A DNA stretch of 64,000 bases from an uncultured Clostridium sp. (GCA_902491155.1 CABUGH010000002.1:24211-88210); one strand, 5' to 3'. Shown: positions 2,757-47,976, counted from the first letter of the stretch. Notes: a model not told the origin generated them from the sequence alone. Numbers and translations: made by a program.

Positions 2757-2850
2757 TATTTGAATTTAATTTTTTAAACTCTAACAATAAAATTTAAAAA
2801 ATTGGCAATACTATTTATAAATACATTTAGAAAGGAGCGAACACTAAAAA

Positions 2851-3606
2851 ATGAAAAACAAAAAGCAAAACTCTATATGGTATATAATTACAATAATTGC
2901 TCTATTAATAATATGCACTCTAGCATTTTATTTTTTCAGAAGCAAGATTAGTAAAAGTAACAAATCTGAGTATCAAACAGAGAAAATTTCAACTAATCAA
3001 CAATCTCAAACAATTAATCAATCCAACGAACAACAAAATTCATATACAAATAATTTAAGAACAGAAAAACAGGAAAATGCTGACCCAAACACAACTAATA
3101 CCCCTGAAAGCCAAAATAAAGAAAATCAACAACAAACAACTCAACCAAAAGAAACCCAAATTGCAACTTTTACCACAAAAATTTATACCAAAGAAAAAGC
3201 AAGGCAAAACAATATGCAAATAACAGCCTCACGACTAAATGGAAAAATCGTAAAAAACGGATCCACTTTTTCTTTTTGCAATACTTTAGGACCTTCATCT
3301 AGTAAAAACGGATACCAAGAAGCTGATATTTTTGACAATGATGGCAATAAAAAGAAAGGATTAGGTGGTGGAAATTGCCAAATTAGCAGTACATTATACA
3401 ATGCTGTTTTATCTACACCTGGTTTAAAAGTTGTTGAACGCCATGAACATAGCAACAAAGTGCCATATGTAAAAAAGGGCAAAGATGCTGCTGTTGCATA
3501 TGGAAGCTATGATTTTAAATTTTGCAACGAATCCGGTAACGATATAAAAATAACATTTAATGTCACATCAGATAATGTCACCACTACAATATACAAAATG
3601 GAATAA
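2851..3606 (+). CDS. VanW-domain protein with N-terminal TM segment and Q/N/T-rich linker
   Basis: AAAGGAG RBS. C-terminal half matches VanW hallmarks: GSTFSF..LGP....GY..A.......GGGNCQISSTLYNAVL..GLKVVERH.HS..V.Y...G.DAAV. Confidence 0.8.
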   Translation: MKNKKQNSIWYIITIIALLIICTLAFYFFRSKISKSNKSEYQTEKISTNQQSQTINQSNEQQNSYTNNLRTEKQENADPNTTNTPESQNKENQQQTTQPKETQIATFTTKIYTKEKARQNNMQITASRLNGKIVKNGSTFSFCNTLGPSSSKNGYQEADIFDNDGNKKKGLGGGNCQISSTLYNAVLSTPGLKVVERHEHSNKVPYVKKGKDAAVAYGSYDFKFCNESGNDIKITFNVTSDNVTTTIYKME

Positions 3607-3644
3607 AAAAAATATTACAATTCATATAATTTAATGGTGATATT

Positions 3645-5141
3645 TTGAGAAAAGCAAAAATTTTTATAATAAATGGAATAGTTTTAACATCTTCTTCCCT
3701 TCTAATACGTGGCGTAGGACTTGTATTCAGCATTTATGTTGCAAACAAAGTTGGTCAAGAGACAATAGGTATTTTTAGTCTTGTTATGTCTATATATAAC
3801 TTTGCCATCACATTTGCAACATCTGGTATAAGCCTTGCCTGTACATACATTGTCTCAGAAGAATTTGCTAAAAAAAATTTTGAAAAAGGATTTAAATCAG
3901 TAAAAAACTGTATAGCCTTTGCCACAACTTTAGGAATTACAGCCAGCATTTTATTAATTTTTTTAGCACCACTTATTTCAAGCACCTGGCTAAATAAAAA
4001 AATTTCTAATATTCCCATTTATTCTATTGCTATAGGGTTACCACTTATCAGTATTTCCTCTGTTATTAGTGGATATCTTACAAGTGTTGGAAAATCTTAT
4101 AAAAGTGCAATATCGCAATGTATTGAATTACTTGTAAAAATCTTAGCAACATACATTTTATTAAAAATATCTATTAATAAAGGTATTGACGCTATATGTA
4201 CCAGTTTAATTTTAGGAGATGTTATTTCAGAGTTATTCTCGTTTGGCTTGAACATAACTTTTTATTTTGTTGATAAAAAAAAGAGAAAACTATCAAGAAG
4301 TTATAACACAGAAATAAATAACAAAATTTTAAAAATCGCATTACCTGTTGCAATAACTTCATATATACGTTCCGGATTGTCATCATTAAAACAATTTCTA
4401 ATACCATTTAGACTTCAAGCCTCTGGTTTAAACTATTCTTTAGCTATTTCAAAATATGGATTAATAAATGGAATGGTCATACCTGTTTTATTATTTTGCA
4501 GTTTTTTTATAAACTCTTTTAGCGGTCTATTAGTCCCTGAATATTCACGCTTATTAGCAGGGAAAAATTTTAATAGAATGAAATCTGTTTGCTATAAAAT
4601 TTTTGCAATCACATTTTCCTTTTCATTTCTAATAGCCGGCGTCTTCTTATTCTTCTCAAATGAAGTTAGCCTACTAGTATACAAGAATTTAGAAATTGCA
4701 ATATATTTAAAAATCTTTTCTTTTCTTATAATCTTTATGTACATAGATAACATTATTGATGGAATTTTAAAAGGAATAAACAGTCAATTTGGAGTTATGA
4801 TTATTAATATTTGTGATTTATTAATTACTATTTGTATCATATATTTTATTGTACCAATTTATGGAATTAACGGTTATGTTTTTAGTATCTTTATTAGCGA
4901 GATTTTTAATTTTACAGCAAGTTTTATTTTATTAAAAAAGAAATTAATTATTAATTTTGACTTTCTAAATTTCTGCATAAAGCCTTTTATAATTTGCTTA
5001 TTCTCATATTTTATTACCATGTTTTTGCCAATCAATTTTCAAAATATCCAGGCAAACTACATTTTAAAAATTTCAACTTTTACTATTTTATACCTTTTAA
5101 TATTTGCAAAAATAAACTACAATTTTTTAAAATCACTTTAA
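3645..5141 (+). CDS. MOP-superfamily flippase (SpoVB/MurJ-like polysaccharide biosynthesis protein)
   Basis: 498 aa, about 14 hydrophobic segments, N-terminus typical of SpoVB-type proteins; TTG start. Confidence 0.7.
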   Translation: MRKAKIFIINGIVLTSSSLLIRGVGLVFSIYVANKVGQETIGIFSLVMSIYNFAITFATSGISLACTYIVSEEFAKKNFEKGFKSVKNCIAFATTLGITASILLIFLAPLISSTWLNKKISNIPIYSIAIGLPLISISSVISGYLTSVGKSYKSAISQCIELLVKILATYILLKISINKGIDAICTSLILGDVISELFSFGLNITFYFVDKKKRKLSRSYNTEINNKILKIALPVAITSYIRSGLSSLKQFLIPFRLQASGLNYSLAISKYGLINGMVIPVLLFCSFFINSFSGLLVPEYSRLLAGKNFNRMKSVCYKIFAITFSFSFLIAGVFLFFSNEVSLLVYKNLEIAIYLKIFSFLIIFMYIDNIIDGILKGINSQFGVMIINICDLLITICIIYFIVPIYGINGYVFSIFISEIFNFTASFILLKKKLIINFDFLNFCIKPFIICLFSYFITMFLPINFQNIQANYILKISTFTILYLLIFAKINYNFLKSL

Positions 5142-7417: not shown

Positions 7418-7906
7418 TTAAATTAATACAACCTTATTTTCTTTTAAACTTTCTTGCACATCAATAACTCTTTGATTAGATGAACCTTTCCATTTCAATT
7501 TAGGATTATGCAACTCATCCATATATTGACCATCAACCAAAACATCTAAATATTTTACAACTTCTTTATCTTTTAAATCTTTATCAAATTTAAAACCTGA
7601 CCAAGCCCATAAATTTTTATTAGGAAATTTTTGTTTAAAAGCCTTTGCAAGTCTAGTTGTTCCCTCAATATTTTTAGGATTCATTGGCTCACCACCTAAA
7701 ATAGAAAGCCCCTCTACATTCTCATTTTCACATAATTCTAATACTCTATCTATTGTGCCATCTGTAAATTCTTTACCACCATTAAAATCATGTGTTTCCG
7801 GATTAAAACAATTTTTACAATTAAATGTACAACCCTGCATAAATATAGACACTCTAACCCCTGGTCCATCTGATATATCCATTTTTCTAATTTTATTATA
7901 TCTCAT
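7418..7906 (-). CDS. nrdG: Anaerobic ribonucleoside-triphosphate reductase activating protein (radical SAM)
   Basis: CTFNCKNC cluster motif, directly downstream of nrdD; ATG at 7904-7906 preferred over the TTG at 7912. Confidence 0.9.
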   Translation of the reverse strand: MRYNKIRKMDISDGPGVRVSIFMQGCTFNCKNCFNPETHDFNGGKEFTDGTIDRVLELCENENVEGLSILGGEPMNPKNIEGTTRLAKAFKQKFPNKNLWAWSGFKFDKDLKDKEVVKYLDVLVDGQYMDELHNPKLKWKGSSNQRVIDVQESLKENKVVLI

Positions 7907-7943
7907 TTTCAATCTCTTCCTTCACTTTTTATATCTGTGGACA

Positions 7944-10103
7944 TTATTCATCATCTTTATTATCAATATGTAACACTCTCTCTTTAATCTCTTGTGTACG
8001 TCCCTTATTCCAGAAATTACTTCCAATATATCCACAAGTTCTTCTAGCCACATTCAAAGTATCATGATCTCTATTACCACAATTTGGACAATACCACTCA
8101 AGATTATCATCAATCAATATTTCCCCATCATATCCACATTTTTGGCAATAATCTGATTTTGTATTCAATTCTGCATACATAATATTATTATAAATAAATT
8201 TAATAATTTGTAAAACAACTTCCAAGTTATCTTGTAAATTAGGAGTTTCTACATAAGAAATTGCTCCACCTGGACTCAATTGTTGGAATTCACTTTCCAA
8301 TTTTAATTTAGAAAAAGCATCTATCTCTTCAAATACTGGCACATGATAAGAATTTGTAATATAATCTCTATCTGTAATTCCTTTAATTTTTCCAAATCTT
8401 TTTCTTAAACATTTTGCAAATTTATATGTTGTTGACTCAATTGGTGTTCCATAAACACTATAATCTATATCTTCTTGTTCTTTCCATTCTTTGCATTTAT
8501 CATTTAATTTTTGCATAACCTCTAGTGCAAATTCTTTTCCATCACCATTATCTGTATGGCTATGACCTGTCATATATTTAACACACTCATATAATCCAGC
8601 ATAACCTAAAGACAATGTAGAATATCCACCATGTAATAATGGATGTATGCTTTCACCTTTTTTCAATCTTGCTAATGCTCCATGTTGCCATAGTATTGGT
8701 GCTACATCACTTGTTGCCTTACTTAACCTCTCATGTCTTATTTTTAAAGCTTTATGGCATAATTCAAGTCTTTCATCAAAAATTTTCCAGAATTTTTTCA
8801 TGTCTTTTCCAGATGATAATGCTGCATCTACTAAATTTATTGTTACAACACCTTGATTAAATCTTCCATAATATTTAGGTTTATTAGTTTTTGGATCAAC
8901 ATAAGGAGTTAAGAATGATCTACATCCCATACATGGATAACAATGTCCTTCTCCATTTTTATCTATCTTTAGTTCTAACATTTTCTTTTCTGAAATATAA
9001 TCTGGCACCATTCTTTTTGCAGTACATTTTGCAGCCAATTCTGTTAAATACCAGTATTTACTGTCTTCATGTATATTATCCTCTTCCAATACATATAGCA
9101 ACTTTGGAAAGGCTGGTGTTATAAATACACCTTTTTCATTTTTCATTCCTAAAATTCTTTGTTTCAAAACCTCTTCTATAATCATTGCCAATTCTTCTTT
9201 ATACTCTTCTGTTTCACCTAAATATAAGCAAACACTTAAGAAAGGAGCTTGTCCATTTGTTGTTGTCATAGAATTAATTTGATATTGAAATGTTTGTACA
9301 CCATCTTTTACTTCTTTTTTCAAATCTTCTTTTGCATATTTTTCGCAATCTTCTTTTGAGAAATTTCTATCTTCATATTTCTTTAAAAATCTCTTATAGC
9401 TTTCTCTTACAAATGGTGCCAAATGTGTCATAGTAACAGTTACACCACCATATTGACTTGAATTTACTGCTGTTATAATTTGTGTTGCAATAGTCATTGC
9501 TGTTAAAAATCTATGTGGTTTTTCTATCATTACACCATTTATACTTGTACCATTTTGTAACATATCTTCCAAATTTACCAAATCGCAATTGTGTAATGCA
9601 TTTTGTGCAAAATAATCTGCATCATGAAAATGTATAATTCCTTCGTCATGTGCTTTTACTATATCTTCTGGTAGTAAAAATCTTCTTGTTATATCTGTAC
9701 TTGTAATTCCAGCCAAATAATCTCTTTGAGTTGTTACAACTTTTGCATTTTTATTTGAGTTTTCTGTATTCCAATATTCACTTTCTCCATCTATCAATTC
9801 TTTTATAGATTGATCTGTTGTATTAGCTTTTCTAACTAATGCTCTTGTATATCTATATGTAATATATTGTTTAGCTAACTGATATCTTCCTATTTCCATT
9901 AATTTTTTTTCTATTATATCTTGAATATCTTCAACTAATATTCTAGCTTTTTTTAAATCTTCAATATATGCAATAATATTATCTATATCCTCATCTGTTG
10001 CTCTTTCTTTTTTAGCTACCTCTTTATTAGCTTTTCCAATTGCCACTCTTATTTTTTCTGGATCATATTCAACTATTGTTCCATCCCTTTTAATAATCTT
10101 CAT
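7944..10103 (-). CDS. nrdD: Anaerobic ribonucleoside-triphosphate reductase
   Basis: N-terminal ATP-cone, C-terminal CxxC..CxxC zinc site and glycyl-radical motif RRTCGYIG; GGAG RBS before the ATG at 10101-10103. Confidence 0.95.
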   Translation of the reverse strand: MKIIKRDGTIVEYDPEKIRVAIGKANKEVAKKERATDEDIDNIIAYIEDLKKARILVEDIQDIIEKKLMEIGRYQLAKQYITYRYTRALVRKANTTDQSIKELIDGESEYWNTENSNKNAKVVTTQRDYLAGITSTDITRRFLLPEDIVKAHDEGIIHFHDADYFAQNALHNCDLVNLEDMLQNGTSINGVMIEKPHRFLTAMTIATQIITAVNSSQYGGVTVTMTHLAPFVRESYKRFLKKYEDRNFSKEDCEKYAKEDLKKEVKDGVQTFQYQINSMTTTNGQAPFLSVCLYLGETEEYKEELAMIIEEVLKQRILGMKNEKGVFITPAFPKLLYVLEEDNIHEDSKYWYLTELAAKCTAKRMVPDYISEKKMLELKIDKNGEGHCYPCMGCRSFLTPYVDPKTNKPKYYGRFNQGVVTINLVDAALSSGKDMKKFWKIFDERLELCHKALKIRHERLSKATSDVAPILWQHGALARLKKGESIHPLLHGGYSTLSLGYAGLYECVKYMTGHSHTDNGDGKEFALEVMQKLNDKCKEWKEQEDIDYSVYGTPIESTTYKFAKCLRKRFGKIKGITDRDYITNSYHVPVFEEIDAFSKLKLESEFQQLSPGGAISYVETPNLQDNLEVVLQIIKFIYNNIMYAELNTKSDYCQKCGYDGEILIDDNLEWYCPNCGNRDHDTLNVARRTCGYIGSNFWNKGRTQEIKERVLHIDNKDDE

Positions 10104-14357: not shown

Positions 14358-14447
14358 TGTTTTGTCCTCCTGTATTAATACTGTTATACTTGTTACATTT
14401 TTTATTATACAACTATTTTACATAATTTTCAAGTAAATTATAAAATT

Positions 14448-14563
14448 ATTGGCACTTATTAGAACATTTTAAAACCCGCGTATCTATTCGTGCACGAAAT
14501 TTGCTTTGCAAATTTCTGTGCATTGTTATATTTTATATTATAAAAAAGTTCTTCGAACTTTCT
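14448..14563. repeat. ~116-bp intergenic repeat, copy A
   Basis: About 85% identical by hand alignment to 19718-19833; contains the hairpin TGCACGAAATTTGC-TTT-GCAAATTTCTGTGCA and a second AAGTTC-N3-GAACTT hairpin. Confidence 0.8.
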
Positions 14564-14630
14564 AAAAGGTAAAAAAACAGACCTAATTATTAAACTATTT
14601 CTAGTCTAAATAATTAGGTCAATTTGCTTT

Positions 14631-41417: not shown

Positions 41418-42116
41418 ATGTTTGCTCTATTATCAACTGTTGGCTTTTTAAATTTTTTAAAGTCTGCCGTTTTTGTTGTTGGTTATATACAAGGTAGTAA
41501 TTTGTTTCCGGAGCCACTTTCACAAGAAGAAGAATATAATTGCTTAGTTCAAATGGCTAATGGTGACGAAGATGCTAGAAATATATTAATTGAAAGAAAC
41601 CTACGATTAGTTGCACATATCACAAAAAAATATGCCACTACTAATGTTGATCAAGATGATTTAATTTCTATTGGTACAATTGGTTTAATAAAAGGTATAA
41701 ATAGTTTTAAAATAGAAAAAGGAAGCAAACTTAGTACATATGTTTCCAGATGTATTGATAATGAAATTTTAATGCATTTAAGGTCAACCAAAAAATTGAA
41801 TTCTGAAGTATATTTAAACGAACCTATTGGAAAAGATAAAGATGATAATGTTGTTACATTACAAGAAGTTTTGGAAAATGATGAAAAAAACATTGAAGAT
41901 GAAGTAGATTTGAAATTCAAAATTAAACTCCTGTATGAAAAATTAAAGTCTGTACTAAAAGATAGAGAACGTACAATTATTAAACTTCGCTTTGGACTTG
42001 ATGGAAATAAACCTAAAACACAACATGAAATTGCTGAAATGATGGGAATTTCTCGTTCTTATGTTTCAAGAATTGAATCAAAGGCTATTAATAAATTAAG
42101 TAAAGAATTTAAATAA
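41418..42116 (+). CDS. sigK: Sporulation sigma factor SigK (pro-sigma-K), uninterrupted
   Basis: Hydrophobic pro-sequence then FVVGYIQGSNLFPEPLS; ERNLRLVAHITKKY, DLISIGTIGLIKGINSF and ILMHLRSTKK resemble B. subtilis SigK more than SigE. Confidence 0.85.
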   Translation: MFALLSTVGFLNFLKSAVFVVGYIQGSNLFPEPLSQEEEYNCLVQMANGDEDARNILIERNLRLVAHITKKYATTNVDQDDLISIGTIGLIKGINSFKIEKGSKLSTYVSRCIDNEILMHLRSTKKLNSEVYLNEPIGKDKDDNVVTLQEVLENDEKNIEDEVDLKFKIKLLYEKLKSVLKDRERTIIKLRFGLDGNKPKTQHEIAEMMGISRSYVSRIESKAINKLSKEFK

Positions 42117-42182
42117 AACAAAAGCAGACATTTCTATATAATTATTGCATTACAAAACCTCTTTTTATTTCATCTTATCTTA

Positions 42183-42385
42183 TATGCCCATTTCCACATA
42201 TCTCTGATGGTACTAGAGTTCTTTCATCTGTTAAGATTTTGCCTATTTCTGTTGGTGTTTTTCCGTTTCGTGCTAACATGAATATTCTTCTTACAATTGG
42301 TGCTATATCTTGGTCAATTATATAATGGTTATTGTCTAATTCTTCATTGCTTACTATTATTTCGCCATTACCAACTTCTAGTTTA
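42183..42385 (-). pseudogene. Large serine recombinase, internal fragment
   Basis: Hand translation THKLEVGNGEIIVSNEELDNNHYIIDQDIAPIVRRIFMLARNGKTPTEIGKILTDERTLVPSEICGNGHIR-stop resembles the recombinase-domain segment (..vvde.eA.iVr.IF.l...G.s...Ia..Ln.egi.tP); no catalytic N-terminus. Confidence 0.6.
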
Positions 42386-42416
42386 TGAGTAAATTATAAA
42401 CTAGAAGTAAAATGCT

Positions 42417-42452
42417 TTAATGCCATATAATTTTATAGTTATATGGCATTAA
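42417..42452 (-). terminator. Hairpin directly after the last gene of the 5-ORF operon
   Basis: 14-bp stem TTAATGCCATATAA / TTATATGGCATTAA with an 8-nt loop; weak U-tail. Confidence 0.55.
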
Positions 42453-42453
42453 T

Positions 42454-42888
42454 TTATATAAAAAGACTTTTAATTTTATTAATTAATCTCTTAAATATGG
42501 ATTCTTTATATTCTACTAAAGCAACCTCGTTTTTAATAATTTTTTCTTGAACATGCTTTTTAAAGATATTATCTGGATTATATTTTTTTCTAAGTTCATT
42601 TTCATACATATCTTCATTATTTTTAAATATTTGTTTTAATTCAAATTTCTCATTTTCATTTTCACACCAATAGTTCAAATGTAATAAAGCTATTATTGAT
42701 ATTGTTTCCTTTTTAATATTTTGTTTATTTAATGGTATATCCTCTGTATATTTAGGCTCATAATTAATATCCCTTTTTTTTTCTAACATATTGACTAAAC
42801 TTTTTGGTAATTTATCAATATATTCATTTCCTAAGAAATTCAACACTTGATATACTTCTGAATAAATTTCTTTAGTTTTTCTATTCAT
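42454..42888 (-). CDS. Hypothetical protein (144 aa)
   Basis: GAAGGAAAAG RBS; start overlaps the upstream stop (ATGA), suggesting translational coupling; no family recognised. Confidence 0.7.
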   Translation of the reverse strand: MNRKTKEIYSEVYQVLNFLGNEYIDKLPKSLVNMLEKKRDINYEPKYTEDIPLNKQNIKKETISIIALLHLNYWCENENEKFELKQIFKNNEDMYENELRKKYNPDNIFKKHVQEKIIKNEVALVEYKESIFKRLINKIKSLFI

Positions 42889-43856
42889 ATTTCTTTTCCT
42901 TCATAATTTTTTTCTGGTTGTTCAATTCCTTCTCTTAATGTCTCTTTAGCATGACTTAAATCTGATAATTTTACATCTTGATATGCATCCAATAAAATTC
43001 TACGTTTAGATTTTCTTGTATCGCTTTTTATGTTATCGCTGCTCTGTTCGGTTTGTCCTATATCTCTACTTAAATAAAACATAGCATTTTGAATTACAGT
43101 ATTTTCTCCTAAAACTCCATCTCTATTGCCATACATTTCGACAGATAATTGTTCTAATTTTTGCATATCATTAGAAATAACTGCTTCGCTTATTTGCCTT
43201 TGTTGTTCTGTTAACCTATCTGAAAGGCTTTTTATAAAAGTTCCTTTTTCTTCATCCGTCATTTCAAGAAAATGGCTTATATTTTTTTGAAATATTCTCT
43301 CTCCATTTTCTTCTTTAAAATATCCTAAAATAAATTCTTTTGGAAATTCCCCATAATCATTATCTCCACAACATAATCGGTCTAAAATACAAGTTATTTT
43401 GTGATTATTTCCAACAGCACTTGTATCCATTCCTGGGAATCCAACATATAATTTTTCTCCATTTCCTTCCAATATTGTAGGAACTAAAACAACAACTCCG
43501 TTTTCTGCCATTTCACTGCCTAATCTATAATTTTTTATTGCTTCTCTTTGATGTTTTTTTAATTCAGAACTTACTCCTAAAGAACTTACAGTTGCTAACA
43601 CAGAACTACCTTTCTTTATATCTAGTCCACCATCACATATTCCTTTTAAAACTTCATCTACAGATTTACCTTTAATTTTTTCTTTTCGTACCGCATGAAT
43701 ACCTAAACCCATTTTCCCTTTTTGACTTTTCATAACTTCATCAATATATTCATACATTCCTTCAGTATTTGATTTCACTCTTTTACTAGTATTTTGACTT
43801 TGACTAATCAATTCCGATCTATCTATATCGTTAAAATCAAAAACAATTTTTCTCAT
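42885..43856 (-). CDS. Hypothetical protein (323 aa)
   Basis: GGAGAA RBS; soluble, no motif recognised by eye. Confidence 0.7.
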   Translation of the reverse strand: MRKIVFDFNDIDRSELISQSQNTSKRVKSNTEGMYEYIDEVMKSQKGKMGLGIHAVRKEKIKGKSVDEVLKGICDGGLDIKKGSSVLATVSSLGVSSELKKHQREAIKNYRLGSEMAENGVVVLVPTILEGNGEKLYVGFPGMDTSAVGNNHKITCILDRLCCGDNDYGEFPKEFILGYFKEENGERIFQKNISHFLEMTDEEKGTFIKSLSDRLTEQQRQISEAVISNDMQKLEQLSVEMYGNRDGVLGENTVIQNAMFYLSRDIGQTEQSSDNIKSDTRKSKRRILLDAYQDVKLSDLSHAKETLREGIEQPEKNYEGKEI

Positions 43857-43883
43857 TTTTTCTCCATTCTATATGAAAATTAT

Positions 43884-44660
43884 TTAACTATATATCATTT
43901 GTTTATACTTTATTGATATTTGTTCTTTTACTTCTTCCATCTGTTTCATAATTCCTTTTAAAGTAGAAATTACGTCTAAAACTTTTGAACTATTTTTAGA
44001 TTTAATATCTTTTATATATTCATTTTCATAATTTTCTAAAAATCTTTTAAATTTACTTTTTCCTGATATTTTATTAAAAATTATTCTCTTTATCTTGGTA
44101 AATATGTTATCTTCATATATTTGCAACTGATATATGTTATTGACAAATACTTCATTTATATCTGCTTGTGCATTTTCTATACACCATTTAATTCTTGCCT
44201 TACACTCATCAATAATAACTGCATAATTTAATTTCTTTTGTGCACAAGCTAGTATAGTATTTTGCATTTTTTGTATTTCTTCATCTGCATTTTTTTCCTT
44301 TTGTAATCTTTTTGTTAATGTTACTATATTAGCTATTGCAATTTTTTGATTATTCATAGCATTCTGCATTATCTTAAATATATTTACATATAAATTATCA
44401 TATACATTAATTAACTTTTCTAATTGTTCTTTATACTTATATATATTCTTTTCTATCTCATACTCATATTTTTCGCTCTTTTGATTGTAAAATCTTGATT
44501 GTTGTTCAAAAACTTCTCTTATTTCATTCATTTTACGTTCTTTTAATTTTTCTATGTTTTTTTGATATATTGCTAATTGTAACATAGAAATTTCATTTTC
44601 TACATTTTCTAAATTCTGCATATTTTCATTTAATTTTTCAAATATTTCAATTTCATCCAT
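43884..44660 (-). CDS. Hypothetical coiled-coil protein (258 aa)
   Basis: GGGAGAG RBS; heptad-rich, K/E/N/Q-rich sequence throughout. Confidence 0.7.
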   Translation of the reverse strand: MDEIEIFEKLNENMQNLENVENEISMLQLAIYQKNIEKLKERKMNEIREVFEQQSRFYNQKSEKYEYEIEKNIYKYKEQLEKLINVYDNLYVNIFKIMQNAMNNQKIAIANIVTLTKRLQKEKNADEEIQKMQNTILACAQKKLNYAVIIDECKARIKWCIENAQADINEVFVNNIYQLQIYEDNIFTKIKRIIFNKISGKSKFKRFLENYENEYIKDIKSKNSSKVLDVISTLKGIMKQMEEVKEQISIKYKQMIYS

Positions 44661-44677
44661 AGTATCTCTCCCATAAA

Positions 44678-45100
44678 CTATCTAAAAATATCATCTATTT
44701 TATCTTGATAATTCTTTCCTAACTTATTCATTCCTCTGTCCATTTTATTTAGTGTCGGACTTAATATTTTGTTGCTCACATTTCTTGTTACCACATTTCC
44801 CATTCTTAATATATCATTAATCTCATCTAACATCCCTTTGTCTTTTCCTAGTAATGATTTGTCAATCATATATTTTAATCCTAATGCACTTATTAATTCC
44901 ACCCCAACAGTAGGTATCATTACACTTGCAGCTAATAGTCCTGCACCTGTAGCAATTTTTTGCATTTGTGGATTTTTTACTAATGCATTCACAGTTTTTA
45001 TTGCTCCTCGACCAGTTAATTCTATTCCTTTTCCTAATCCTTTTAAGGTATATTTACCTGTAGTTTTAGCAATTCCTTTTATTACTTTTTTTGCATTCAT
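44678..45100 (-). CDS. Hypothetical small membrane protein (140 aa)
   Basis: AGGAG RBS; Lys/Gly-rich N-terminus, then the hydrophobic segment IATGAGLLAASVMIPTVGVELISALGL. Confidence 0.65.
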   Translation of the reverse strand: MNAKKVIKGIAKTTGKYTLKGLGKGIELTGRGAIKTVNALVKNPQMQKIATGAGLLAASVMIPTVGVELISALGLKYMIDKSLLGKDKGMLDEINDILRMGNVVTRNVSNKILSPTLNKMDRGMNKLGKNYQDKIDDIFR

Positions 45101-45120
45101 CTTTTGACTCCTTTTATTAT

Positions 45121-45288
45121 TTACTTTATTATTTGTGATAAATAATCATTCTGTTGTTCAATAATTTGTACTCGCTTTCTTTCTATTTTTTCTAAATACT
45201 TGCCCAATTCGGTTATATTAATTTTATCAATATCTATACTTGTACCATCAATGTGTATATTTCCATATTTTCCATCAAATTTAAACAT
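45121..45288 (-). CDS. Small hypothetical protein (55 aa), first gene of the operon
   Basis: Hand-translated MFKFDGKYGNIHIDGTSIDIDKINITELGKYLEKIERKRVQIIEQQNDYLSQIIK; GGAGAA RBS 6 nt upstream; below the track cut-off. Confidence 0.5.
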   Translation of the reverse strand: MFKFDGKYGNIHIDGTSIDIDKINITELGKYLEKIERKRVQIIEQQNDYLSQIIK

Positions 45289-45327: not shown

Positions 45328-45357
45328 ATTATACCATAACAAAATTAATTTTGTTAT
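45328..45357 (-). promoter_or_regulatory. Extended -10 promoter overlapped by a perfect 22-bp palindrome (putative operator)
   Basis: Reverse strand ATAACAAAATTAATTTTGTTAT-GG-TATAAT; the palindrome 45336-45357 covers the -35 and spacer; about 40 nt upstream of the 55-aa ORF. Confidence 0.5.
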
Positions 45358-45390: not shown

Positions 45391-45637
45391 CTAAATCTCA
45401 TTCCATTTCTCTTTCTTCTTTTTTTTATGAAAGTCATTTTGTAATTTTCTATAACTATCTCTACCCCCTCCAAAAATCTCTGGCACATATTTTATCTATT
45501 GCATTACCTTGTTCATCTTTTGTATGAATTACTGGTATAAACGTCAAGTGCATATGTGGTGTTGTTTCATTTTCCTTAAAATAGAAATTCAAATGTGTCA
45601 TTGTTGGATCAATATCCTTAAAAGTTCTCCAAACTTC
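45391..45637 (-). pseudogene. MobV-family (Pre/Mob) relaxase, frameshifted N-terminal fragment
   Basis: EVWRTFKDIDPTMTHLNFYFKENETTPHMHLTFIPVIHTKDEQGNAIDKICARDFWRG-stop, continuing in another frame as GRDSYRKLQNDFHKKK; the motif stPHMHl.f.P plus l..LQd.F is typical of MobV relaxases. Confidence 0.6.
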
Positions 45638-45657: not shown

Positions 45658-47535
45658 TTAACCTCTCAGCATTCTTAAAGAATTTAAAATTGCAAGTATA
45701 GACACTCCAACATCTGCAAAAACAGCTTCCCACATCGTAGCAACACCACAAGCACCTAAAACTAAAACAATAACTTTTACAGCTATAGCAAATATTATAT
45801 TCTCCTTTACAATTTTCATAGTCTTTTTAGAAATTTCTATTGCCTTACCAACTTTAGAAGGTTCATCTGTCATAATAACAACATCTGCAGCTTCTATTGC
45901 AGCATCAGAACCCAACGCTCCCATAGCAATACCAATATCACTCAAAGCAAGAACAGGAGCATCATTTATCCCATCACCAACAAAAACCAATTTTCCTTTT
46001 AAAGATTTTGACTTTAACAACTGTTCAACTTTCTCCACTTTTCCATCAGGAAGCAACTCAGCATAAACTTCATCAATTTGCAATTCTTTTGCAACACTAT
46101 TTGCAACTGCCTTTTTATCCCCAGTCAGCATAACTGTTTTATTAACTTCATTCTTTTTAAGCTCGATAATTGCATCTTTAGAATCTGATTTTATTTTATC
46201 TGAAATTACAATATATCCTACAAATTCGCCATCAACCGCAACATACAATACCGTACCTATATCTGTACTCTGAACATACTGTATTTTTCGTTCTTCCATC
46301 AATTTTTGATTTCCAACTAACACATTTTTTGAATCTACAACAGCACTCATACCTCTTCCTGATAATTCTTGCACATCAGAAATTTTCGTTCCGTCAATTT
46401 TTTCTTTATATCTTTTATTATACTCATTTTTTATAGATATTGCTATTGGATGATTTGAATCATTTTCACAACTTGCCACAAGTTTTAACAACTCATCTTT
46501 TCCAACTTCAAAATTAGAATTTGCAAAACCCAATTCTTTTGATGTAACTATTTTTTGAACCTCAAAAACACCTTCTGTTAAAGTACCTGTTTTATCAAAA
46601 ACTGCTATTTCTGTATTAGCCAAACCTTCCAAATAGTTACTACCCTTTATTAAAACACCTTTTTTAGAAGCTCCACCTATTCCACCAAAAAATCCTAAAG
46701 GAATAGATATAACTAATGCACATGGACATGATACAACCAAAAATGTAAGTGCTCTTGATAGCCAATTTACAAAACTACCATCTCGTAATACAATAGGCGG
46801 AATTATTGCAAGCATTACTGCTAATATTACAACTATTGGAGTATAATATTTTGCAAACTTAGTTATAAAATTTTCTGATTTTGATTTTTTATTACTTGCA
46901 TTTTCCACTAAATCCAAAATCTTATGTACTGTTGATTCTCCAAATTCTTTCTCAACTTTTATTTTCAAAGTTCCATTTTGATTTATAGAACCACTTAATA
47001 TTCTATCATTTTTCTTAACACTTTGTGGCACAGATTCACCAGTCAAGCTTGATGTATCTATCATGGAATTACCATCAATTACCGTTCCATCCAATGGCAC
47101 TTTTTCTCCAGGTTTAACTACTATTATTTCATTTATTTTTACTTCTTCTGGTTTTACTTTTATAACATTACCATTTCTTTCCACATTTGCATAATCAGGT
47201 CTAATATCCATTAACTCACTAATTGATCTCTTTGACTTATCAACAGCATAATCCTGAAATAACTCACCAACTTGATAAAATAGCATTACAGCAACAGCTT
47301 CCGGATATTCTCCTATAGCAATAGCCCCAATAGTTGCAACAGCCATTAAAAAATGCTCATCAAACAATTTTCCTTTAAATATATTTTTTATTGCCCTTAT
47401 TATAATTTCTCCACCAACAATTAAATAACTTATAATATATATAATTCTACTAATCCATATGTTCTCAAATTTTGCACACAATGCTATTATAAATAACACA
47501 CATGCTGTTATTATCTGAATAATTTGTTTTTTCAT
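45658..47535 (-). CDS. cadA: Heavy-metal (Cd/Zn/Co-type) translocating P1B-type ATPase without N-terminal metal-binding domain
   Basis: CPC in SCPCALVISIP, DKTGTLT, GDGINDAP; starts directly with TM helices; ATG at 47533-47535 preferred over the GTG at 47562. Confidence 0.9.
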   Translation of the reverse strand: MKKQIIQIITACVLFIIALCAKFENIWISRIIYIISYLIVGGEIIIRAIKNIFKGKLFDEHFLMAVATIGAIAIGEYPEAVAVMLFYQVGELFQDYAVDKSKRSISELMDIRPDYANVERNGNVIKVKPEEVKINEIIVVKPGEKVPLDGTVIDGNSMIDTSSLTGESVPQSVKKNDRILSGSINQNGTLKIKVEKEFGESTVHKILDLVENASNKKSKSENFITKFAKYYTPIVVILAVMLAIIPPIVLRDGSFVNWLSRALTFLVVSCPCALVISIPLGFFGGIGGASKKGVLIKGSNYLEGLANTEIAVFDKTGTLTEGVFEVQKIVTSKELGFANSNFEVGKDELLKLVASCENDSNHPIAISIKNEYNKRYKEKIDGTKISDVQELSGRGMSAVVDSKNVLVGNQKLMEERKIQYVQSTDIGTVLYVAVDGEFVGYIVISDKIKSDSKDAIIELKKNEVNKTVMLTGDKKAVANSVAKELQIDEVYAELLPDGKVEKVEQLLKSKSLKGKLVFVGDGINDAPVLALSDIGIAMGALGSDAAIEAADVVIMTDEPSKVGKAIEISKKTMKIVKENIIFAIAVKVIVLVLGACGVATMWEAVFADVGVSILAILNSLRMLRG

Positions 47536-47613
47536 ATTTTCCACATTCCTTTCTAAAAACACATATTAAAATACAATTAATACCAAACACAAAAAAATTC
47601 GCAATAATTACAA

Positions 47614-47976
47614 TTAATTTTTATGTTCAATATGTTCTATACCTAACTCAAATAATCCCTTAACATGATCATCATCCAATGTATAGTAAACTTCTTTTCC
47701 TTGTTTTCTACATTTTACTATTGACATCCTTCTTAATGTTCCCAACTGATGTGATATTGATGACTTACTCATTCCAAGCACATTTGCTATATCACACACA
47801 CACATTTCATTTTGATCCAAAGCAAATAATATTTTTGCTCTTGTTGTATCACCCAATATTTTAAAAAATTCAGCCAATTTATTAAATGTATCATCATCTG
47901 GCATTTTTTTTAATGTGGTCTCAACCGCTTCTTTATGTATAATGTTACAATCACATATAAACTCATTTTTTGACAT
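47614..47976 (-). CDS. ArsR/SmtB-family metalloregulator (CadC-like)
   Basis: ELCVCDIANVLGMSKSSISHQLGTLR HTH with metal-site cysteines; upstream of the ATPase; GGGGGA RBS. Confidence 0.9.
   Translation of the reverse strand: MSKNEFICDCNIIHKEAVETTLKKMPDDDTFNKLAEFFKILGDTTRAKILFALDQNEMCVCDIANVLGMSKSSISHQLGTLRRMSIVKCRKQGKEVYYTLDDDHVKGLFELGIEHIEHKN

Follow-up and report, generated by a model that had tools for sequence, protein, structure and literature searches.

The locus examined here raises the question of why five intact genes of no recognisable family stand together in the debris of a mobile element beside sigK, and what such genes might do. It lies within a stretch of 64,000 nucleotides from an uncultured Clostridium sp. 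of the gut (GCA_902491155.1, CABUGH010000002.1:24211-88210), referred to below as the window, and its features are collected in Table 1. A preliminary description of this DNA had listed five co-directional ORFs of 55, 140, 258, 323 and 144 aa, each with its own GGAG-type ribosome binding site (RBS), separated by gaps of 20, 17 and 27 nt and then by a 4-nt ATGA overlap. Five intact ORFs of the same sizes (g1 to g5) were re-derived on the minus strand between 42454 and 45288, and the gaps from g1 to g4 and the g4/g5 overlap had the same values when measured again. One GGAG-type RBS is visible 5' of every start codon, reading AGAGGAG, AAAGGAG, GGGAGAG, AATGGAG and GAAGGAA from g1 to g5; that of g5 is embedded, with the ATGA overlap, in the last codons of the g4 tail. 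The first product is tiny and soluble, as had been described.

Table 1. Features of the cassette and of the element remnants around it (window coordinates)
Feature	Position	Strand	Description
g1	45121..45288	-	55 aa; opens module A; soluble, net charge 0
g2	44678..45100	-	140 aa; predicted membrane protein of module A; net charge +13
g3	43884..44660	-	258 aa; module A
g4	42885..43856	-	323 aa; 'head' protein of module B
g4 C-terminal tail	42888..43007	-	residues 284-323, KRRILLDAYQDVKLSDLSHAKETLREGIEQPEKNYEGKEI; putative docking handle for g5
g5	42454..42888	-	144 aa; small helical partner in module B
Promoter	45328..45357	-	-35 ATAACA, 18-nt spacer, TG-extended -10 TATAAT; 10/12 matches
Palindrome (possible operator)	45336..45357		ATAACAAAATTAATTTTGTTAT; 22-nt, perfect, overlaps promoter
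Hairpin terminator	42417..42452	-	16-bp stem, directly after g5 stop
DUF6076 remnant	42380..42410	+	about 31 nt of the gene's 3' end; convergent with cassette
Large serine recombinase fragment (TnpX/TndX type)	42156..42340	-	95% nt identity to L001
MobV (Mob_Pre) relaxase remnants	45427..45619	-	approximately aa 33-52, 127-162 and 159-174 of 415; different frames

A promoter scan of the region gave its best minus-strand match at the position where a promoter/operator had been proposed, with the palindrome overlapping it. Promoter-like sites are not in excess in this region (20 found against 26 expected from shuffling), and the promoter is given weight because it is conserved in other loci. Promoter and palindrome are kept upstream of g1 in loci L001, L009, L010 and L014, and directly upstream of g4 in L012, L016 and L017, where g1-g3 are deleted, while loci of the 450-aa class and those holding only g1-g3 have them in diverged form. 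The terminator hairpin is the sole terminator-like site in the region (0.6 expected), and a hairpin stands at the equivalent place in L001, L007, L009, L010, L012, L016 and L018 with stems that differ yet are self-complementary. The hairpin had been noted earlier at the correct place, but with a stem of 14 bp instead of 16.

Comparison with related loci showed that the 3.5 kb between sigK and a P-type ATPase gene are a deletion-riddled Tn4451-like integrative mobilisable element (IME) with its cargo slot intact. Elements L001-L003 and L009, which are intact, have the same five genes immediately behind a complete Mob_Pre relaxase gene (415 aa) and ahead of DUF6076, a 165-aa gene and a recombinase with Resolvase, Recombinase and DUF4368 domains, with TnpV upstream; the earlier suggestion that the five genes are cargo of a former integrative mobilisable element is borne out. 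By blastn the window aligns to L001 as four collinear pieces with deletions between them, pairing 45424-45570 of the window with 7746-7601 of L001, 43832-45425 with 10025-8427, 42380-43007 with 11543-10916, and 42156-42340 with 14395-14579, and the surviving fragments are 91-96% identical. The DUF6076 gene of L001 (11513-12607) is on the strand opposite to the cassette. The last piece is the bracketing serine-recombinase fragment of the preliminary description, which tblastn also aligns, at 90% identity, with residues 1-42 of the ORF that has the Recombinase domain; the full recombinase domain set (Resolvase, Recombinase, Zn ribbon, DUF4368) is present in L001, L052 and L055. At the other end, the MobV fragments align with parts of the complete PF01076 protein of L001 (415 aa) at 81-97% amino acid identity, a MobV fragment by itself matches PF01076 weakly (Pfam, E=0.031), and the final 14 codons of mob survive just upstream of the promoter. 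What had been called a frameshifted MobV fragment is indeed a relaxase remnant with a change of frame, but it has internal deletions as well.

The gene sigK (41418-42116, 232 aa) is an intact ORF convergent with the remnant, which follows its stop codon. A skin-like sigK-intervening element was rejected, as sigK is uninterrupted and the remnant lies downstream of its stop. Because sigK is intact and related cassettes occur at many other chromosomal sites, the adjacency seems incidental.

Tn4451 and Tn4453 comprise the MobV relaxase TnpZ, the large serine recombinase TnpX/TndX and TnpV. In the same manner L001, L009 and L052 encode TnpV, a Mob_Pre/MobV relaxase and a Resolvase, Recombinase, Zn-ribbon and DUF4368 recombinase, are without a type IV secretion system, and are located at varied chromosomal sites. 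They differ in that the cargo consists of orphan proteins and not of an antibiotic-resistance gene (catP or catD), and in that the backbone adds DUF6076, the 165-aa gene and an HTH_36 protein, which to our knowledge have not been described for Tn4451. The window element differs further in being dead, TnpV being gone and the MobV relaxase and large serine recombinase present only as fragments; because these two are lost, this copy cannot be active. Tn4451 is a MobV IME to which the serine integrase gives low site specificity (PMC5704250).

The position between mob and the DUF6076/recombinase backbone is a hypervariable cargo slot. Among 80 sibling IMEs with a relaxase 53-95% identical, Mob is common, as are DUF6076, the 165-aa hypothetical protein and the recombinase where the flank is long enough, and g1-g4 are absent from all 80. 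The slot in 26 of these elements holds 94 proteins in 61 clusters, among them a viperin-like radical-SAM protein (PADLOC pVip, E=9e-17), a KAP NTPase (PDC-S20, E=2e-50; PifA/QatA-like) and a HEPN_Swt1 protein. This setting gives the cassette a likeness to a defence island, from which it differs in that its own five proteins match none of 5027 PADLOC models and in that the slot also contains non-defence cargo (MFS, BlaR1, a sigma factor and an LRR surface protein).

The cassette had been described as a single five-gene operon. A promoter and a terminator are indeed shared; the cargo, however, was shown to consist of two adjacent and separable modules, module A (g1-g3, with the promoter) and module B (g4-g5, with the terminator). 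Module B is found alone in L007, L012, L013, L015-L017, L019, L020, L023 and L024, and module A alone in L040-L046. A precise deletion of g1-g3 in L012, L016 and L017 fuses the promoter to g4, which would preserve expression of g4-g5. The whole cassette and both modules thus recur in other genomes, and the contrast drawn earlier between intact ORFs and a decayed backbone is found repeatedly, at least 8 independent loci holding the cassette without the backbone. The chromosomal sites of the modules vary among species, with mobile-element scars nearby. Decaying copies also exist, namely L011 (g1 truncated, g3 frameshifted), L014 (g4 frameshifted, g5 intact) and L024 (both genes truncated).

The five genes are under purifying selection, mostly among elements rather than since the decay of this one. 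In most comparisons dN/dS was 0.13-0.27 for g1 and 0.04-0.10 for g2 (0.24 in the decaying L011), and values were 0.18-0.33 for g3 and 0.16-0.30 for g5 (0.46 only for the very distant L028 pair); within an allele class the range was 0.04-0.36, and these values mostly reflect evolution among elements, not after decay. The earlier claim of retention under selection agrees with this, dN/dS being well below 1 for all five, with that same restriction. Of 6 independent metagenome contigs, at least 5 have exactly this locus and the sixth departs from it by one mismatch; the collection indexes g5 in 135 blocks. Samples of this species show almost no polymorphism from which selection within it could be gauged. 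We consider it very unlikely that the ORFs are a neutral remnant, intact merely because decay is recent and without current function in the host. The flanks were lost to a few large deletions and not to many point mutations, the identity of the remnants to L001 means that decay could be recent, and cassette genes do decay in L011, L014 and L024. However, what the deletions left untouched is exactly the promoter-to-terminator stretch, precise internal deletions in independent lineages left the promoter still with g4-g5 or with g1-g3, the backbone-free loci have kept the cassette, and dN/dS is far below 1.

The statement that no family is recognisable held against Pfam, NCBIfam, PHROGs, PADLOC and PDB sequences for all five proteins. 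PDB sequence searches with g2 and with a g3 profile gave no match, profile searches with g4 against PDB sequences and Pfam found nothing, g5 had no Pfam, PHROG or PDB match, and 14 diverse g5-like proteins had none in Pfam. The PADLOC and Foldseek comparisons proposed in the preliminary description were carried out: none of the five proteins matched PADLOC-DB v2, and in Foldseek the AF2 models of g4 (PDB and BFVD; best E 0.26-0.4) and g5 were unmatched. The matches of g3 are all sub-threshold (DUF484, E=0.021; ZorA coiled-coil tail, E=0.025). None of the searches linked the proteins to a housekeeping or sporulation complex. Membership in a known anti-phage defence system of PADLOC-DB v2 was rejected, the ZorA match of g3 being the sole one and below significance. 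A type II toxin-antitoxin system defined by homology or by a DNA-binding antitoxin domain was likewise rejected from Pfam, NCBIfam, PADLOC, PHROGs, PDB and Foldseek; these family searches detected no HTH, RHH or AbrB domain, and none of the proteins resembled a known toxin, antitoxin, immunity or defence family in sequence or in structure.

Within module A, g1 is invariably ahead of g2-g3, the stand-alone loci L040-L046 included. The product of g2 fits the Lys/Gly-rich protein with a strongly hydrophobic segment noted earlier: its N-terminus is basic and rich in Lys and Gly, and a hydrophobic stretch at about residues 50-78 contains an invariant Pro63 plus Gly residues (maximum 19-residue hydropathy 1.9, in the window from residue 55). 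It is the most constrained of the five, with an amino acid identity of 87-97% even in comparisons where that of g4 falls to about 31%, and its 141 homologue clusters are all 104-164 aa long and none is named. By composition g3 reads as a coiled-coil, helical protein, with invariant cysteines C139, C153 and C160. With a coiled-coil protein of about 250 aa encoded after a small membrane protein, g2 and g3 have a superficial likeness to LiaI-LiaH or PspA-type pairs. Module A differs from these in that g3 has no PspA_IM30 or other Pfam match and has three invariant cysteines, and in its extra 55-aa gene and mobile-element context. Membership in PspA/IM30-LiaIH was rejected, as g3 has no PF04012 match at E<=1.

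Such pairs bear on a further reading, in which the genes have been domesticated and serve the cell (envelope stress, sporulation or SOS-linked physiology), being no longer selfish. The locus is fixed, identical or near-identical in many metagenome samples of the species, and adjoins sigK in a spore former; in other species stand-alone g1-g3 trios occupy stable chromosomal contexts, and solo g4-domain proteins (L027, L029, L030) keep a syntenic place between obg and lexA across several Clostridia. Against this, neither PspA/IM30 nor sporulation-family homology was found, the module sites differ by species and have mobile-element scars close by, the distribution is patchy and allele-swapped as is typical of accessory genes, and sigK is intact, convergent and outside the unit. 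Domestication has, in our estimate, a very low probability.

Read from the N-terminus, the protein g4 comprises a disordered segment (1-29), an alpha/beta core (about 45-195; window 43272-43724), a helical part (200-270), a disordered linker (266-291) and, at the C-terminus, a conserved tail. Its AF2 model has a pLDDT of 72 overall and 80-95 in the core, which is beta-alpha-beta rich, and places the disordered linker ahead of a tail helix. No Pfam domain is found in 290 representative g4 homologues. Across 118 distant homologues H54, T89, Y110, D159, E174 and N192 are the only strongly conserved polar residues, with H54 kept in 111, Y110 in 100 and E174 in 94. These residues could belong to a new NAD-utilising, ADP-ribosyltransferase (ART)-like enzyme of the H-Y-E type, or to another hydrolytic enzyme, that would modify a host or invader target with g5 as its regulator or inhibitor and module A as unrelated cargo. 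Two motifs, 'hGhH[GAS]h ... I..xGL' and 'P.EFI.GY', together with a spacing of 120 residues from H to E, recall PARP and diphtheria-toxin-type ARTs and are taken as a lead only; one homologue has LHGTKPT, and the order of secondary structure in the core is compatible. However, Foldseek gave no ART or other match and the PDB-sequence and Pfam profile searches were empty, E174 is not invariant, with Q in its place in many 450-aa-class members, and Y110 follows a helix and is not on the expected strand. An enzyme of this kind appears improbable.

The body of g4 (43008-43831) has no nucleotide homology to L001, which has a different allele there, and homology resumes exactly at 43007, the start of the tail. 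The tail motif is present in 18 of 20 homologues with g5 downstream and in 0 of 9 solo g4-domain proteins. Tail identity correlates with g5 identity at r=0.80, against r=0.54 for g4-core identity, and a tail-like motif occurs in the unrelated 347-aa partner of the g5-like gene in L122 (E=8e-4). The protein g5 was shown to belong to a large family of small helical proteins with an interchangeable larger upstream partner. There are 928 homologue clusters, and 34 of 35 distinct g5-like genes in the fetched loci directly follow or overlap a larger same-strand ORF, the exception being L014 with its frameshifted g4. These partners are unrelated proteins of 108-726 aa, one with a transglutaminase-like protease domain, and fall into at least 10 families among the 35 distinct pairs. 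Conserved in g5 are KIP (P28), Y43 and the KYNPDNIFK motif (103-111); its AF2 model has a pLDDT of 71. A basic amphipathic helix at its C-terminus (EYKESIFKRLINKIKSLF, window 42460-42534), kept in the family over 26-65% identity, looks like a membrane-targeting sequence. From these sequence patterns we infer that g5 binds the tail of its upstream partner. Adjacency in the DNA, through shared recombination blocks, could also cause co-variation of tail and g5, as opposed to protein contact.

A contact of this kind would also suit a model, to us rather unlikely, in which the g5 family are membrane-tethering adaptors or chaperones and not toxins or antitoxins. The helical N-domain would grip the tail of an enzyme and the amphipathic C-terminal helix would take it to the membrane, where it would act on the envelope or enter the recipient with the IME DNA via a helper type IV secretion system; if delivered, the enzyme would be an establishment or anti-defence effector. 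The conserved helix fits this model, as do the diverse, enzyme-like partners (one transglutaminase-like), the neighbouring membrane protein of module A, and the occurrence of the g4 core inside very large multidomain proteins: P0371 (1132 aa, C-terminal), P0326 (2044 aa) and P0362 (two copies). These are reminiscent of the polyvalent proteins of conjugative elements, and the g4 tail follows a principle like that of the C-terminal secretion signals on type IV secretion substrates. However, modules and promoter are kept in transfer-dead elements (that in the window, L012, L016, L017, L007), which is unexpected for a function in transfer only, the cassette is downstream of mob and not obviously in a leading region, no homology to type IV secretion, coupling or chaperone proteins was found, and the membrane-targeting role of the helix is read from sequence only.

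The preliminary description had proposed a defence, exclusion or toxin-immunity type of system as a candidate; a toxin-antitoxin or defence-like role is the one to which the position of the cassette and its architecture point. Our preferred but tentative reading, at a probability of roughly 40%, is that the cassette may consist of 'selfish' toxin-antitoxin-like addiction or defence modules. Module B would be a toxin-antitoxin pair (addiction or abortive defence) with a swappable 'head', in which g5 would bind the C-terminal tail of its partner and the tail, via the disordered linker, would keep g5 neutralised, or the reverse. Should the element disappear, proteolysis set in or the variable head sense an invader, the balance could be upset and the free partner would act, most likely at the membrane via the amphipathic helix of g5. 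Module A would belong to the same selfish or conflict type, as a second small module that is independent of module B and acts at the membrane.

Type II toxin-antitoxin systems include sgiAT of SGI1, and some of their antitoxins have a disordered C-terminal neutralising tail. The g4-g5 pair is similar in being adjacent and translationally coupled (the 4-nt overlap; 34 of 35 g5-like genes abut a partner), in that upstream g4 ends in a disordered linker and a short conserved helix, in that the small downstream g5 is more conserved than g4, and in that the pair outlasts decay of its carrier and a palindrome overlaps the promoter. It differs in having neither toxin or antitoxin homology nor a detected HTH, RHH or AbrB domain, in its large upstream partners, and in a promoter three genes upstream of g4 that belongs equally to module A. 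Panacea (DUF4065) is the hyper-promiscuous antitoxin domain of PanAT systems. The g5-like family resembles it as a single conserved small partner with many unrelated neighbours; it differs in being always downstream and in having no relationship to DUF4065. Membership in Panacea was rejected, since g5 and the 14 g5-like proteins have no Pfam match.

Several observations speak against a toxin-antitoxin role. At 323 aa g4, and other partners at up to 726 aa, are large for antitoxins; no match to known toxin, antitoxin, immunity or defence families was found, and the slot is shared with non-defence cargo. Solo g4-domain proteins hold conserved chromosomal positions, and as they stand alone between obg and lexA the head is not inherently a toxin needing g5. 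L014, with its frameshifted g4 beside an intact g5, fits poorly with g5 as a toxin restrained by g4, unless the frameshift is an assembly artefact or the tail ORF continues to be produced.

Toxin-antitoxin addiction modules are known on IMEs and ICEs (PMC5704250). An addictive or protective property of the cassette, if true, would explain why both modules have outlived the element that carried them.

Comparison with intact relatives bears out the preliminary description of the five genes as cargo of a decayed mobilisable element. Among the contigs found by searching with g4, four loci (L001-L003 and L009) carry the whole five-gene cassette directly 3' of an intact gene for a 415-aa Mob_Pre (MobV) relaxase, mob. 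Beyond the cassette these elements have a convergent DUF6076 gene, a gene for a 165-aa protein and a serine recombinase gene (Resolvase, Recombinase and DUF4368 domains), and on the upstream side TnpV and an HTH_36 protein; type IV secretion genes are absent from all four. MobV, a serine recombinase and TnpV, without type IV secretion genes, make up the gene set of a Tn4451-like integrative mobilisable element (IME; features summarised in PMC5704250), and the vehicle is thus a MobV/serine-recombinase IME of this already known kind. Nothing on DUF6076 came up in a literature search. The element spans ~12 kb in L001. The window aligns with L001 in four collinear blocks (see the table), and the remainder has been deleted; the IME is dead.

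Coordinates of the cassette genes, signals, element remnants and neighbouring features in the window (dN/dS values are pairwise, from at least 10 loci)
Feature	Position	Strand	Size	Particulars
g1	45288-45121	-	55 aa	dN/dS 0.13-0.27; one low-divergence pair noisy
g2	45100-44678	-	140 aa	dN/dS 0.04-0.10; 0.24 against the decaying L011
g3	44660-43884	-	258 aa	dN/dS 0.18-0.33
g4	43856-42885	-	323 aa	dN/dS within allele class 0.23-0.47, mostly 0.27-0.36
g5	42888-42454	-	144 aa	dN/dS 0.16-0.30; 0.46 against the very distant L028
Promoter-like site	45357-45328	-		ATAACA, 18 nt, TG-extended TATAAT; best scoring on strand
Terminator-like hairpin	42417-42452		16 pairs (stem)
Recombinase fragment	42156-42340			L001 14395-14579, 95% nt identity
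DUF6076 last 31 nt, terminator, g5, g4 3' tail	42380-43007			L001 11543-10916, 91.6% nt identity
g4 start, g3, g2, g1, promoter, mob last codons	43832-45425			L001 10025-8427, 96% nt identity
Internal mob piece	45424-45570			L001 7746-7601, 94.6% nt identity
sigK	41418-42116			intact
Metal-resistance pair	45658-47976			ArsR-family regulator and P-type ATPase
CadA-like ATPase	45658-47562
T-box leader RF00230	19860-20087	-		94.4 bits

The adjacent sigK gene is intact and convergent with the remnant, which excludes a skin-type insertion. The GC content of the window is ~28%, of Clostridia type, and the cassette has the same composition as its surroundings. Five independent metagenome contigs match the locus at 100% identity and a sixth differs by one mismatch; the g5 protein occurs in 135 indexed blocks of the metagenome collection, and the remnant therefore seems to be fixed in a gut species that is common. 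Every relative comes from a metagenome-assembled genome (MAG) of an uncultured gut member of the Clostridia or Bacilli, and part of the frameshifts may therefore stem from assembly. Megablast with the locus found no match among plasmids and phages, and tblastn with g4, g5 or a divergent g5-like protein found none in these collections either. A phage origin was rejected, because scanning IMG/VR with the g4 profile brought up no relatives.

The remnant abuts a metal-resistance pair, composed of a 120-aa ArsR-family (HTH_5) regulator and a 634-aa heavy-metal-type P-type ATPase. As in the window, the cassettes of the 450-aa g4 class in L004-L006 have a P-type ATPase gene shortly upstream, which in these three loci is a 923-aa Ca-type. 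A Cation_ATPase_C fragment of 269 aa (7461-8270) stands separately beyond the remnant in L005, and the element may therefore have inserted into an ATPase gene and replaced its 3' end. Elsewhere in the window the sole Rfam family is a T-box leader, just over its gathering score of 93, and ARAGORN detected no tRNA genes.

The layout of the 2.8 kb cassette is as first described: five co-directional minus-strand ORFs of the lengths claimed, each with a GGAG-like ribosome binding site ahead of its start, separated by 20, 17 and 27 nt and then by a 4-nt ATGA overlap. There is one promoter-like site, overlapping a perfect 22-nt palindrome, and one terminator-like site, the only one of the region, directly past the g5 stop. 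This hairpin had been given a 14-bp stem; it is present, with 16 pairs. Across the five genes dN/dS ranges from 0.04 to 0.47, in keeping with the proposal that the ORFs are retained under selection, and g1-g5 are real, constrained genes. They evolve under purifying selection, and the cassette has persisted past the loss of the element backbone, with its promoter preserved. Decaying cassettes also exist (L011, L014 and L024). Set beside these ratios, the alternative that the locus is a neutral remnant of recent date is very improbable.

The five genes do occur together in other genomes, namely in L001-L003 and L009, but they do not hold as the one system that had been envisaged, because two modules occur separately. 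Module B (g4-g5, with the terminator) is found without g1-g3 at at least 10 loci (L007, L012, L013, L015-17, L019, L020, L023 and L024), and module A (g1-g3, with the promoter) without g4-g5 at L040-L046, with 48-69% identity and at stable chromosomal positions in other species. In L012, L016 and L017, g1-g3 are cleanly excised and the conserved promoter and palindrome lie directly ahead of g4. Of the loci with module A only, L044 keeps a diverged form of the same promoter region, and in L040 only a -10-like TGATATAAT element remains of it. The terminator hairpin accompanies g5, its stems differing between loci yet staying self-complementary.

The swappable part of the cassette is g4, which comes in three size classes (323, 345 and ~450 aa). 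Where its body is only 30-38% identical, g2 is 87-97% and g5 57-87% identical, and nucleotide homology to L001 is lost precisely where g4 begins, in its first codons, to return at codon 284. The small partner is universal. Its homologues fall into no fewer than 928 clusters when grouped at 90% identity, and across all loci retrieved 34 of 35 distinct g5-like genes directly follow or overlap a larger same-strand ORF, the lone exception being a locus with a frameshifted g4. Some of these partners are of the g4 family and the others, 108-726 aa long, are unrelated; Pfam domains are nearly always lacking, and one partner has a transglutaminase-like protease domain. Over 26-65% identity the g5 family keeps a KIP motif (P28), Y43, KYNPDNIFK and a C-terminal basic amphipathic helix, EYKESIFKRLINKIKSLF, which in our view is akin to the helices that target MinD and FtsA to membranes. 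On the reading that g5 is a membrane or type IV secretion adaptor delivering interchangeable enzymes, which we consider improbable, such a helix and such varied partners would belong together.

The last 40 residues of g4 (KRRILLDAYQDVKLSDLSHAKETLREG...), its tail, are conserved in all three g4 classes. The tail motif is present in 18 of 20 g4 homologues with g5 next to them, against 0 of 9 solo g4-domain proteins. Tail identity follows that of g5 (r=0.80) more closely than that of the g4 core (r=0.54), and among divergent-core pairs the values are r=0.82 and r=0.31, respectively. A similar tail is detectable in the unrelated 347-aa partner encoded in L122, a locus whose g5 is 57% identical to that of the window. 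The idea of a tail motif common to all g5 partners holds in part: the motif is clear for g4-family partners and for L122, and not significant for the other partners. In the AF2 model the tail helix (residues 297-308) is placed after a disordered linker (266-291). We infer that the tail is a g5-binding handle; the two are adjacent on the DNA, and a shared recombination history could yield the same statistics. In L025 a 357-aa g4-family protein ending in a tail-like RRIILENMLDDLESLKD (1745-2818) is followed by a 367-aa ORF (2823-3926) whose N-terminus is loosely like the g5 start; this ORF may be a relative of g5, fused or expanded, that escaped the profile search.

A metagenome scan with the L001 relaxase gave 80 related IMEs of 53-95% identity, sharing, where flanks were sufficient, a frame of Mob followed at a distance by DUF6076, the 165-aa gene and the recombinase. 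In none of the 80 do g1-g4 follow mob, and the cassette was therefore rejected as conserved backbone or transfer machinery. The mob-DUF6076 interval of 26 elements holds 94 proteins in 61 clusters and is thus a variable cargo slot. Sampled occupants include a viperin-like radical-SAM protein (PADLOC pVip, E=9e-17), a KAP-family NTPase (PDC-S20, E=2e-50, with weaker PifA and QatA matches) and an HEPN_Swt1 protein, besides an MFS transporter, a BlaR1-type sensor, a sigma factor and a BspA-LRR protein, so that conflict genes and other accessory genes are mixed in the slot. With its pVip, KAP and HEPN genes the IME family seems to serve gut Clostridia as a carrier of defence genes. Defence-type genes are located in L064 (11261-12256), L074 (7935-9293) and L095 (10815-12032), with siblings in L090, L099 and L076. 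Genes resembling g5 are found in 19 of the 80 IMEs, at 28-57% identity and on either strand. Next to g5-like genes the slots also contain two recurrent orphan families, one of ~185-211 aa starting MEKKYVRVMDGLKSNAGGFEYK (L122 14491-15048, L089 15046-15597, L092 1419-2054) and one of ~236-283 aa with ...WSEGNKYLYELL..C.....ASCGGH... (L122 11270-12121, L089 11306-12106, L083 11379-12089).

The products had been described as belonging to no recognisable family, and this stands. None of g1-g5 matched Pfam, NCBIfam, PHROGs or PADLOC significantly, PDB-sequence profile searches with g4 (A1, A2), g3 (A4), g2 (A5) and g5 (A6) gave nothing meaningful, and nothing recurred when a varied set of 47 g4-domain and 14 g5-like proteins was scanned against the family libraries. 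Foldseek searches with AF2 models of g4 (PDB and BFVD) and g5 (PDB), one of the checks proposed earlier, returned no match at E<0.2; pLDDT was 72 for g4 (80-95 in the core) and 71 for g5, where residues 1-105 are confident and helical. In module A, g2 is basic with a single strongly hydrophobic Gly/Pro-containing segment, and g3 reads by eye as helical/coiled-coil. Three g3 cysteines (C139, C153 and C160) are invariant down to 46% identity, in ACAxKKLNYAVIxxECxxRxKWC, and may form a metal or redox site.

An exhaustive profile search with the g4 core domain (~residues 45-195) yielded 290 representative proteins. The core is found alone, duplicated (P0362), at the C-terminus of the 1132-aa P0371 and at the N-terminus of the 2044-aa repeat protein P0326; no Pfam co-domains were detected in the long multidomain homologues, these three included. 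Its conserved polar residues are H54, T89, Y110, D159, E174 and N192, a pattern and spacing that, judged from sequence, presumably recall the H-Y-E ADP-ribosyltransferases. This is a lead only, as structural searches are unsupportive and E174 is often Q. That g4 is an enzyme effector regulated by g5 is quite unlikely in our estimate. In several Clostridia the gene order trpS - obg - [g4-like] - lexA - mutS2 contains g4-like singletons of 273-288 aa without tail or g5 (L027 9953-10789, L029 10004-10825, L030 8709-9575), each with its own promoter-like sequence past the obg terminator. The conserved obg-lexA position suggests a conserved host role for the g4 core domain. A domesticated host function would suit a remnant that appears fixed; as the explanation of this cassette we hold it to be most unlikely.

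The reading we prefer, with a probability of roughly 0.4, is that module B is a toxin-antitoxin-like addiction or abortive-defence pair. The neutralising interaction would be the contact between tail and g5, the amphipathic helix would direct the free partner to the membrane, and module A would be a second, small selfish module acting at the membrane. Cassette architecture and context fit type II toxin-antitoxin and defence systems, yet all homology-based tests of membership failed; the likeness to Panacea-type hyper-promiscuous antitoxins, one partner with many heads, is in logic only.

A bolder proposal, tentative at this stage, is a new modular conflict system in which a sensor/effector head is joined to a universal membrane adaptor or neutraliser, the g5 proteins, as a very large family not recognised before, serving as universal partners in gut Firmicute mobile elements and the g4 head being a new H/Y/E-type enzyme fold. 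The g5 helical domain would then clamp the short C-terminal tail of interchangeable head enzymes, a membrane-targeting amphipathic helix would set the complex's site of action, and the g4 fold would also recur in giant multidomain proteins and in a chromosomal gene conserved between obg and lexA. No counterpart of such a system was detected in PADLOC v2 or the family libraries searched.

Mobilisable elements rank with the most frequent mobile DNA of gut Firmicutes, and their cargo is mostly uncharacterised. This locus is a compact example, a conserved cargo under purifying selection that outlives its vehicle, and it opens onto three protein families, all uncharacterised, each of which numbers from hundreds to about a thousand members. 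If g5 is indeed a promiscuous neutraliser or adaptor, this would be a new modular principle for toxin-antitoxin and defence biology, and the gene directly upstream of any g5-like gene would be a candidate effector, a simple genomic marker. Should ordinary addiction prove to be the case instead, widespread 'hypothetical proteins' of the gut microbiome would still gain annotation.
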